This document shows positions 35,901 to 37,589 of a DNA stretch of 64,000 nucleotides, piece by piece (within the stretch, counting starts at the first letter, position 1; every line of letters starts with the position of its first letter). The notes below the pieces were generated by a model that had not been told where the DNA came from, ran no database searches, and saw nothing but the letters and a program-made list of their open reading frames with translations. Location of the stretch: assembly GCA_002269645.1 (NCBI GenBank), contig NIVC01000963.1:166927-230926 (forward strand). Direction: 5' to 3'. Source of the stretch: Macrostomum lignano (lineage: Eukaryota). The position numbers were made by a program, and so were the translations under genes.

Positions 35901-37589
35901 AGGGCTTTAAATTTGTCCTCGACGACCGTTTGGAAAGCATTCCAGTCGACCCCTTGTTTGCGCCATATGAGACGGCTTTGGGCCTTAGGCAAGGTCCTAA
36001 CCTTGAGGTCAAGGCGGATCACAATCGGCGTGTGATCACTGCCGAGGTCATCGGAGACTTGCCAGGTGCATTTGCTAGCCAGCTTTGAGGAGGCGAAGGA
36101 CACATCCGGTGAGCTTTCGCCACCTGTGGCTTTATTGACTCTGGTGGGCGAGCCGTCGTTAAGGATTTCCAGTTGCGTGTCGATGGACCAGTCCAGGAGC
36201 GTGGAGCCTCGTTCGTCCTGGGGCTGTATAGGGTCCCAGGCCGGAGAGTGGCTGTTGAAGTCTCCTAGGATGATGCCCTGAGACGGAGTGCCCAGGTGAT
36301 TCCAGTCCGGAAGCTGTCGATCCTCGACGCAGGTGCGAACAGGTGGAGCATAGACGTTGGTGATGGTAATCCAGTTAGCGGTAGATATCTGGATGTCGAC
36401 CGTCTGGATTTCCATGTCCGCTGTGGCCGTGGGTTGCGGGGACGAGCGGAAGGCCAGCTTGTCTCTGATGAGAAGCAGCAGACCTCCACCGCTGCCGTCG
36501 CCGCGGTCTTTGCGCACGGCGATGTACCCGTTGATCTTTGGCAGCTGCGTGCGGTTGGAGAGCTTCGTTTCTTGGACAGCTGCAATGTCGATATCGCTGT
36601 CGGAGAGGCGTTCGGCCAGCTCGGGCAGTTTGGAGGCGATTCCGTCGGCGTTCCACTGGAGAAGACGGAGGCTGTCGGCAAATTTAGTGTCGCGGGCGAC
36701 CTTGTCCTGCAGGGGGACGCGCGACGTAGCTGCCGAAGGGGCGGGAGCTCCTTGGGTGCGCGCTGTGCAAACTGGGCAGTCCCAAGGGCTGCGAGCCGCG
36801 GCATCCGCGGCGTTGCGATTAAGGCCGGTGCAGCACTTGTGGTAAGCGGCGCTGCAGGAGTTGCACTTGACAAACGCGACGCCGCGGCGAATGGCGGTCG
36901 AGCATTTAGCACAGTAGCGGCGCTGGGCGTCGCTTGGATCGTTCAGATCTCTGTCGGTAGTGGGATCAGCTTGTCTGCGGGTAAGAGCAGGGCGGCGGAA
37001 GATGGAGTGTGCGCCTGGAAGTTGGACCGCCTGCTGCCGATGCAGAGGGCAGAGCCAGCTGGGGGCGCCACGATACCGCGAGATGTGGCTGCAGTTGCTG
37101 GAGCGGTGGCAGGCCAGAGCGCAACCTTTGGCAGCGCAAGTGAGCGGAGTAGTGCCAGTGCGGATGGGCCCTGAGCAGCTGTGACAGCGCGTTGGCTGAG
37201 ACATGCGGGGCTCGGGTGCCGGGAGGTCACGCAGGTGCGCAGCGGATGCCGAGTCCAATTCAAGGGGGCGGTGCACAGAGCAGCGCCACGGAGATCGGAC
37301 AATCTCGGCGCGGTGCATACCGCTGCATTTCTTCTGACAGTGACAGCGCTCGGAACATTCTGGGACCTCACATGGCAGGCTGTGCATGCCCGTGCGGATT
37401 GGGCCGTTGCATGAGTTGCAGGCTGGGCCGGGATTAGTTTCGATGTCCCCGGCGAGCGTAGTGAGGGCGAGCGCAAAGAGGACGAGGCGGGACAGATAGA
37501 CAGCAGCAAAACAACCGGTCTCCCTGCCAGCCGTGCCGAAGGCACGCGAGGGCAGATGGGTTGAAGACCACGACTTAGGAGCTTTGGTG
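32958..37589 (-). mobile_element. Intact single-ORF non-LTR retrotransposon, I-group (Ingi-like), 4632 bp
   Basis: 15-bp TSD (+ strand TTGCTGCTGCTGCTG at 32943-32957 and 37590-37604), 26-nt 3' UTR, (CAA)5 tail. The uninterrupted ORF encodes APE, RT, RNase H and CCHC. Confidence 0.95.
32999..37589 (-). CDS. LINE polyprotein: 2A-like peptide, 3 PHD-like fingers, APE endonuclease, reverse transcriptase, RNase H, C-terminal CCHC
   Basis: LAGDIETNPGP. APE: LLQWNADG, AVQETKL, NVYAPP, LGDFNSH, GSDHTPI. RT: FRPISLTS, DFCKAFDKV, GLPQGSVIAP, MYADDI. RNase H: YCDGS, FEEEL, SDSQS, WVPGH..GNELAD. CCHC: CHRC....LEHWLDCP. Confidence 0.95.

Follow-up and report, generated by a model that had tools for sequence, protein, structure and literature searches.

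Closest described systems

The closest described systems are L1Tc/ingi of trypanosomes and Ingi-1_AC of Aplysia, which, like the element reported here, consist of just one open reading frame (ORF) with an N-terminal 2A peptide, an APE endonuclease, a reverse transcriptase (RT) and RNase H, and have no ORF1 (PMC3708506). The sections of the literature on L1Tc/ingi drawn on here also describe an HDV-like ribozyme at +1, again as in the present case, with a 3-bp P3 and a 1-bp P1.1 (PMC3185411, PMC4035085). A PHD finger between 2A and APE has been described for Crack, CR1 and STR elements (PMC3708506). Luke et al. treated the 2A as a down-regulator (brake) of ORF2 and did not decide how ORF2 is started; the reason for a 2A so near the beginning of single-ORF LINEs, and the way in which ribozyme-headed LINEs without an AUG are translated, are open questions (PMC3894237).

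R2 resembles the present element in being site-specific, and it is co-transcribed with its host sequence and has its 5' end formed by an HDV-like ribozyme (PMC3774820). It differs in its restriction-like endonuclease and its non-coding 28S rDNA target, and the cited sections of that source describe no 2A (PMC3774820). Because its target is non-coding, R2 borrows no host reading frame. Waldo, Mino, Dong and Koshi are microsatellite-specific non-LTR elements. Togen and some HERO families share with the element described here insertion into simple repeats, a repeat tail and short target duplications (PMC4640811).

We analyzed a 64,000-nucleotide stretch of a Macrostomum lignano contig (the window), in which a LINE interrupts a gene for a G protein-coupled receptor (GPCR). 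Unlike L1Tc/ingi and Ingi-1_AC, the family of this element has no AUG before the 2A, a ribozyme inside the open frame, three fingers and a P1 helix split by two hairpins, and insertion into CAG/CAA repeats in one phase is not described in the cited sections on those elements. The targets of microsatellite elements have been seen as harmless non-coding sequence (PMC4640811), whereas here they can be coding (GPCR, HSP20 and BED-finger genes) and the ORF is phased with them. No LINE inserted in frame and in phase with CAG/CAA repeats was found in the literature covered; Repbase, subscription journals and bioRxiv supplements lay outside that search, and Repbase may note the target. The 2A itself is a known feature of single-ORF LINEs, as an earlier, sequence-only reading of this locus had recognized for L1Tc/Ingi and other APE-type elements. 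The new part is the insertion in register with the glutamine frame, together with a ribozyme-bearing leader that is very likely translated.

The element and its copies

A stop-to-stop frame of 1554 codons on the minus strand (37663-32999) carries APE, RT and RNase H, all identified with Pfam, and near its start encodes G-D-I-E-T-N-P-G-P (37450-37424, minus strand; Table 1). A genome-wide search with the degenerate pattern G-D-[VI]-E-x-N-P-G-P finds it 122 times and its reversed control not once, so the motif is not a chance occurrence. There is no ATG in any frame from 37591 to 37451, and the first in-frame ATG (37387-37385) stands 13 codons past the 2A proline, within the first Cys/His finger. 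The exact 2A match, the missing upstream AUG and the position of the first one had all been read correctly from the sequence. The finger had been called PHD at the same time: its Cys/His pattern is present and Pfam PHD matched 2/2 relatives tested, but the window protein gave no match to that model at E<=5. With APE, RT and RNase H on one ORF, no ORF1, and just 218 nt between the 5' end and the 2A in full-length copies, the element is, by its layout, a single-ORF LINE, which we term Ingi-like on the same basis. The hallmarks of target-primed reverse transcription (target duplication, repeat tail and 5' truncation) are present among the family copies and in comparison with four empty sites of the GPCR gene elsewhere in the genome.

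Table 1. Features of the element and of the interrupted host gene, in window positions.
Feature	Position	Strand	Basis or remark
Host GPCR, coding exon 1	38041..38429	-	PF00001/PF10324; splice sites read from sequence
Host GPCR, exon 2 until the insertion	37575..37935	-	frame stops 4 codons into the element
PolyGln CAG/CAA target, upstream part, in the third intracellular loop of the GPCR	37588..37609	-	four empty sites
Ribozyme remnant (J4/2 and 3' strand of P2 only), at the 5' junction	37577..37591	-	
Predicted long hairpin between ribozyme and 2A	37517..37569	-	z -1.86; 8/200 shuffles equally stable
Hydrophobic stretch before the 2A core	37451..37504	-	four Leu in the last 11 residues
2A/StopGo core, G-D-I-E-T-N-P-G/P	37424..37450	-	motif; 122 vs 0 control matches
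Three Cys/His (PHD-like) fingers	36750..37423	-	boundaries approximate
APE endonuclease	36023..36661	-	PF03372, PF14529
Reverse transcriptase	34475..35137	-	PF00078
RNase H	33410..33784	-	PF00075
Stop codon, ~25-nt 3' UTR without AATAAA, (AAC)n tail	32958..33001	-	
Target tract, downstream part	32943..32960	-	5-nt duplication; 15 nt assuming a single run in the original allele
GPCR exon 2 remainder, last helices and tail, beyond the element	32547..32942	-	

A query with the 5' region gave 18 genome matches. Ten copies begin at one shared base, one starts ~62 nt in, one is rearranged, four are GPCR flank only, and the last two, the window copy and a second occurrence of its insertion on another contig, begin at nt 75-79. 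The frame had been described as open to a 5' end at 37589; it is open, but comparison of the copies places the true 5' end of the element 74-78 nt further out. The full-length leader of 218 nt has no ATG in any frame, so the possibility raised in the sequence-only reading, that longer copies might supply an upstream AUG, is not borne out. At the other end, 19 near-identical 3' ends each carry the (AAC)n tail followed by CAG/CAA repeats, and their similarity indicates a young family.

The element interrupts the polyglutamine tract of the GPCR exon. In the window copy 74-78 nt are missing from the 5' end, and its 5' junction shows a 4-nt microhomology (37591-37588). Its frame is offset by one base from that of the GPCR, as had been noted before, and the GPCR frame ends at the stop codon 37577-37575; the 5' truncation is what puts the two out of phase. 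Having neither ribozyme nor phase, this copy would give only a truncated GPCR. It is therefore predicted to be a dead end under every model considered below, with a receptor truncated past helix five. A formal route to its expression would remain through in-frame AG sites in its interior.

Several side observations concern the surroundings of such elements. In a sister family a hairpin of different sequence is seen by eye at the place of the predicted long hairpin. A mini-element of ~190 nt (G000:C3991:32313-32520) joins the ribozyme of the sister family to that family's 3' end; it has a tail and a target duplication and lies in a CAG tract. Two different families sit ~1 kb apart within one Gln-rich tandem repeat (G000:C497:159127-170900), and elements are also found in long CAA runs and next to other elements.

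Elsewhere in the window are frames whose identity we presume from their appearance: a 652-codon frame with His-Gly and Ala-Cys-Arg-Gly motifs and a caspase-like look (10081-12039, minus strand), exons resembling a flavin amine oxidase (15966-22700, plus strand), whose introns are full of tandem repeats, and frames resembling a fibrinogen C-terminal domain (30813-31466, plus), an EF-hand protein (43625-43800, plus), Ig domains (55976-57143, plus) and a HAD-type phosphatase (60241-60723, minus). Long simple and minisatellite arrays occupy 40108-42266 and 50294-54500; among them, a (GACA)n stretch of ~2.1 kb lies upstream of the GPCR.

A ribozyme fold at the start of the leader

The full-length leader starts with an HDV-like ribozyme fold, a nested double pseudoknot with P1, P2, a 3-bp P3, a 7-nt L3, P1.1 and C-N-A in J4/2. 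Self-cleavage is predicted, and the predicted cut site is the 5' end common to the ten copies. A sister family, 76% alike across the first 96 nt, keeps 32/32 proposed pairs with 9 double changes, the single P1.1 pair among them, although this control is lenient in that the structure was derived from the same two sequences. An alternative P1 built on the G run at nt 16-20 was dropped, as P1.1 covaries only in the 7-nt register. P1 is split into 3+4 bp by two inserted hairpins without an unpaired base between them, which makes a four-way junction; a folding program recovers both P1 hairpins, P2 and P3. The HDV-like ribozyme papers compared offer no counterpart to this junction in the sections used. 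P1 is continuous in F3, F12, F20 and F36. The two-hairpin interruption was also observed in several other families, randomly inserting ones included.

A descriptor of the ribozyme core matched 17/38 clusters of related 2A elements in the genome against 1/1520 shuffles, and a looser descriptor finds the core in more clusters. Searched against Rfam, the full-length leader matched no HDV-type family at E<=10, and the window region gave nothing relevant. Because the automatic +1 of the descriptor was ambiguous, target duplications, off-target copies and P1 were used to place the 5' ends by hand. In F11, F18, F20 and F26 the opening 7 nt imitate the CAG repeat and serve as the 5' strand of P1, and two off-target copies reveal that these nucleotides belong to the element; P1 of some R2 lineages comparably uses target-like sequence (PMC3774820). 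Both the ribozyme and the target phasing described below had escaped the sequence-only reading.

Insertion in register with the glutamine frame

Among the nine full-length copies of the window family with both ends, the left flank ends after base 1 of a repeat codon in eight, and target duplications in full-length copies measure 10-16 nt. The ORF is in frame with the upstream Gln codons in 8/10 copies with an intact 5' end, the rearranged tenth included. Entry from any host frame in which the element happens to land had been proposed earlier; entry from a host frame is supported by these copies, but the frame is a specific one.

The same phase is seen beyond this family. We gathered a 2A site set of 112 distinct sites in 38 script-made clusters, with 100 of the 122 pattern matches listed. 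A CAG/CAA run (at least 3 units, 110-300 nt upstream) is present at 67 of these sites and no such run at 45. Phase at the 67 sites is that of the Gln frame in 51, against 9 and 7 in the other two frames, and by our own count 19/28 clusters are mostly in phase. Counted over the 30 codons that follow the run, family-mean stops amount to 2.3 in the Gln frame vs 20.5 and 25.3 in the others, over all 28 clusters and with no picking of copies; for the first 15 codons the values are 1.8 vs 9.1 and 13.1 (28 clusters). As the families are related, these counts are not independent and P values are rough.

Of 26 CAG/CAA-type clusters, 22 match the leader phase of their clade, and one copy of each such family was picked by hand as a representative. 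These 22 representatives contain 0 stops in 848 codons ahead of the first AUG, where 21.6 were expected, a figure to be read with the selection in mind: for F2, F4 and F21 an in-phase copy was chosen from mixed ones, the F18 representative is an off-target insertion and that of F27 lies one base off its run. The clusters left out (F5, F28, F33 and F34) do not have the phase, and every one of them has a leader stop. The 22 leaders have 19 different lengths, from 136 to 272 nt. Three of them have no AUG before the 2A, and the other 19 have an in-frame one at codon 11-78.

A quick RT tree of 48 rows, made from the genome's own families and their relatives without named references, places the CAG/CAA-type families in three clades with support of 97-98; five rows were dropped as mixed or broken, two were too short and six loci had no RT. 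In the window's clade the junction follows base 1 of the repeat codon, with a leader starting at codon position 2; in the remaining two clades it follows base 2, and the leader starts at position 3. Since the start position shifts along with the joining base, both junction types restore the Gln frame. Such a match under two junction types favors the entry of ribosomes from upstream. The phase of the ribozyme core relative to the ORF is 0, 1 or 2 depending on the family; it is therefore the phase of the whole leader that is kept.

Open leaders also occur in seven clusters that have no clear CAG target; the leader starts at position 3 in four of them and at position 1 in three, and two of the seven have no AUG in it. 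Openness thus does not need CAG targeting. The leader is kept open starting at most 15 codons from the 5' end. It is therefore very likely that ribosomes pass through the ribozyme sequence and translate the leader, be it from the 5' end or from upstream.

Activity of the 2A peptide

The 2A core is kept across families with RT identities of 31-61%. The Leu-rich hydrophobic stretch upstream of the core is present here and missing in several related families. Variants were also observed, with Cys for Asp in one family and Arg for the last Pro in another, and several families have a charged rather than a hydrophobic upstream stretch. The 2A of the related Ingi-1_AC skips at over 97% (PMC3708506). 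We consider it probable, with some reserve, that the window-family 2A skips in its native context.

A competing view concerns the 2A step only and applies to any start site: the peptide would not skip, and would instead lower output or serve as a membrane or protease signal, with a low level of N-terminal fusion. We regard this as possible, though on balance doubtful; the skipping of Ingi-1_AC and the retention of the core across divergent families speak against it. It agrees with the case made by Luke et al. for down-regulation of ORF2 (PMC3894237) and with a 2026 preprint in which the exact 20-mer with identical DNA, that is, the last 20 codons through the 2A proline, was part of a pooled HEK293T reporter. 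There it scored 2.26, 2.20 and 2.09, many inert peptides among the listed rows scoring near 3, and fell into the class 'Nonskipping only, reduced protein levels'. Classes were assigned by an SVM; of the samples used to train it, 86% were reclassified, and peptides one residue apart fall into different classes (PMC13405545). The authors request individual confirmation and point to the 20-residue, HEK293T context (PMC13405545). The reduction classes hold 59% of the tested ORF2p peptides, which fits the same view (PMC13405545); the 2A peptides of other families that were looked for were not found in the class table. The skipping proposed from the sequence is thus weakly called into question by this reporter.

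Host frames, transcripts and relatives

An intact sister-family copy (G000:C921) shares a single frame with an ATG and an HSP20 domain that precede it, and past its tail the host frame is taken up again; lying in a small heat-shock gene, this copy is a candidate master copy that is possibly heat-inducible. A truncated copy is in frame behind a BED finger. The Pfam cut-off was passed by 2/18 flanks tested. Long upstream Gln frames are not enriched, the Gln frame being the longest of three at 13/44 in-phase sites, which equals chance, and the open upstream stretch contains an ATG at 11 of these sites in the Gln frame vs 16 and 12 in the others. Insertion is therefore indiscriminate among tracts, and any model in which the host supplies the start needs only a few master copies.

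RNA evidence came from 24 runs of assembled contigs, which we take as RNA and which carry neither start sites nor strand. Four runs cover the element from +1. A 56-nt loose end from two studies maps ~700 nt upstream of a copy on C1. A host-element joint was first read as a sense spliced fusion, a reading we rejected because the ends of the skipped part are those of a minus-strand intron, so that the transcript is antisense to the copy. The C1 copy (G000:C1:632869-633624) lies in an exon of an antisense spliced transcript in two studies, and the empty form of the joint is also present. No sense host-element RNA was seen in these RNA-like contigs, among which one joint was followed.

Related proteins in other organisms have an N-terminal 2A in 30/120 and 44/141 cases. 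None has polyQ at the expected distance, a weak test given that gene calls begin at ATG, and QQQ occurs somewhere in 3 related proteins, one of them apparently from this genome. A metagenome scan of 80 loci returned 28 2A-like motifs with L289 as the sole close relative; its leader contains a stop and no CAG run. By eye, distant metagenome 2A-LINEs mostly show the ordinary arrangement of a stop followed by an ATG and a hydrophobic leader before the 2A.

Origin of the start codon

The best reading of these data, to which we give slightly less than even confidence, is that host polyQ exons supply the start, the 2A uncouples and the ribozyme trims the template. A minority of copies, lying in sense polyQ exons, would be masters co-transcribed with the host gene. 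On transcripts not yet cleaved, ribosomes would read from the host AUG through polyQ and the ribozyme sequence into the leader, and the 2A would uncouple the enzyme from the host fragment, perhaps inefficiently, yielding a Pro-started protein at a low level. The ribozyme would then remove the host RNA from the 5' side and leave a template with exact ends, to be used for target-primed reverse transcription in a further CAG/CAA tract, where a second-strand junction at a fixed repeat phase would restore the frame. Just as tentatively, a LINE radiation of ~20 families in three RT clades may have dropped its own start codon and may insert in register as a continuation of host genes. Direct support from the sequences extends to the domain layout, the fixed 5' end, the AUG-less leader of the window family, the target phasing and the stop-free leaders.

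A host-supplied start is consistent with the phase of the window family (8/10 copies) and of the wider set (51/67 sites), with stops depleted in the Gln frame only, with a junction phase that stays constant while the ribozyme core varies against the ORF, with two junction types that both give the Gln frame, and with the HSP20 and BED-finger copies in frame with their hosts; the short 3' UTR without AATAAA also fits co-transcription. Several observations speak against it: sense host-element RNA was not seen in the contigs, long upstream Gln frames are at chance (13/44), 19/22 representatives have an in-frame leader AUG, four further clusters are out of phase with a stop in each leader, the supporting counts come from related families and are not independent, and the 20-mer was classed as non-skipping, with the hydrophobic stretch missing in several families. 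An active ribozyme would moreover remove the host AUG, a conflict that, we infer, only slow or translation-blocked cleavage would resolve. Clusters without a clear CAG target keep open leaders too, which favors either a start anchored at the element's own 5' end or an older, less exact form of reading in from the host.

A start anchored in this way, within the first codons of the element, would be non-AUG, either cap-independent after cleavage or driven from an internal promoter, with the 2A removing the leader and the Gln match being coincidental. We consider it unlikely. In its favor, the randomly inserting families keep open leaders with a start phase common to related pairs (position 3 in F1 and F9, position 1 in F8 and F35), and the RNA-like contigs span the element from +1. 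The first 77 nt of L1Tc are both promoter and ribozyme, for which an IRES-like mode has been proposed (PMC3185411), and a possible role of HDV-like ribozymes in retrotransposon translation initiation has been discussed (PMC4908430). Yet the first full codon after +1 varies by family and is mostly not near-cognate, and the +1 offset tracks the junction phase between clades, which would have to be chance twice (~1 in 9).

The AUG could also be provided by spliced-leader (SL) trans-splicing, or by cis-splicing in phase 0, to an AG within the leader or the CAG tract, and we think this improbable. Each Gln-frame CAG ends at a codon boundary, so an SL AUG would need no coding exon to be in frame, and this route would account for sites that need no long upstream ORF. 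The 35-nt spliced leader of the species ends in AUG and ~30% of genes are trans-spliced (PMC8629364), and a flatworm SL AUG is able to initiate translation (PMC9851317). Against this, several families follow runs of CAA alone and have no AG where they join, a pyrimidine tract is missing before the junctions (by eye), Pr77-driven L1Tc transcripts are not trans-spliced (PMC3185411), and no SL-like end was seen among 4 loose ends in 4 runs, a weak observation since contigs break at the repeat.

The view that translation merely begins, family by family, at the first in-frame AUG (for the window family, in finger 1), the open leader being meaningless, fits the in-frame AUG before the 2A in 19/22 representatives and the leader stop of the nearest metagenome relative, L289, but is already disfavored and very improbable given that stops are depleted upstream of those AUGs, that AUG positions are unrelated (codon 11-78) with three families having none, and that a start past the 2A would leave the motif purposeless.

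Implications

If host polyQ exons do supply the start, the job of the 2A would be release from a host fusion, and the choice of target would serve translation rather than the avoidance of genes. One short stretch would be ribozyme and coding sequence at once, and a translated HDV-like ribozyme would free the element RNA from the host transcript. Transgenesis exists for Macrostomum lignano, which makes simple tests possible. The same reading implies that the genome of this flatworm may harbor a mutagen directed at polyQ tracts, with an endonuclease that would have a phase-specific preference for CAG/CAA repeats.
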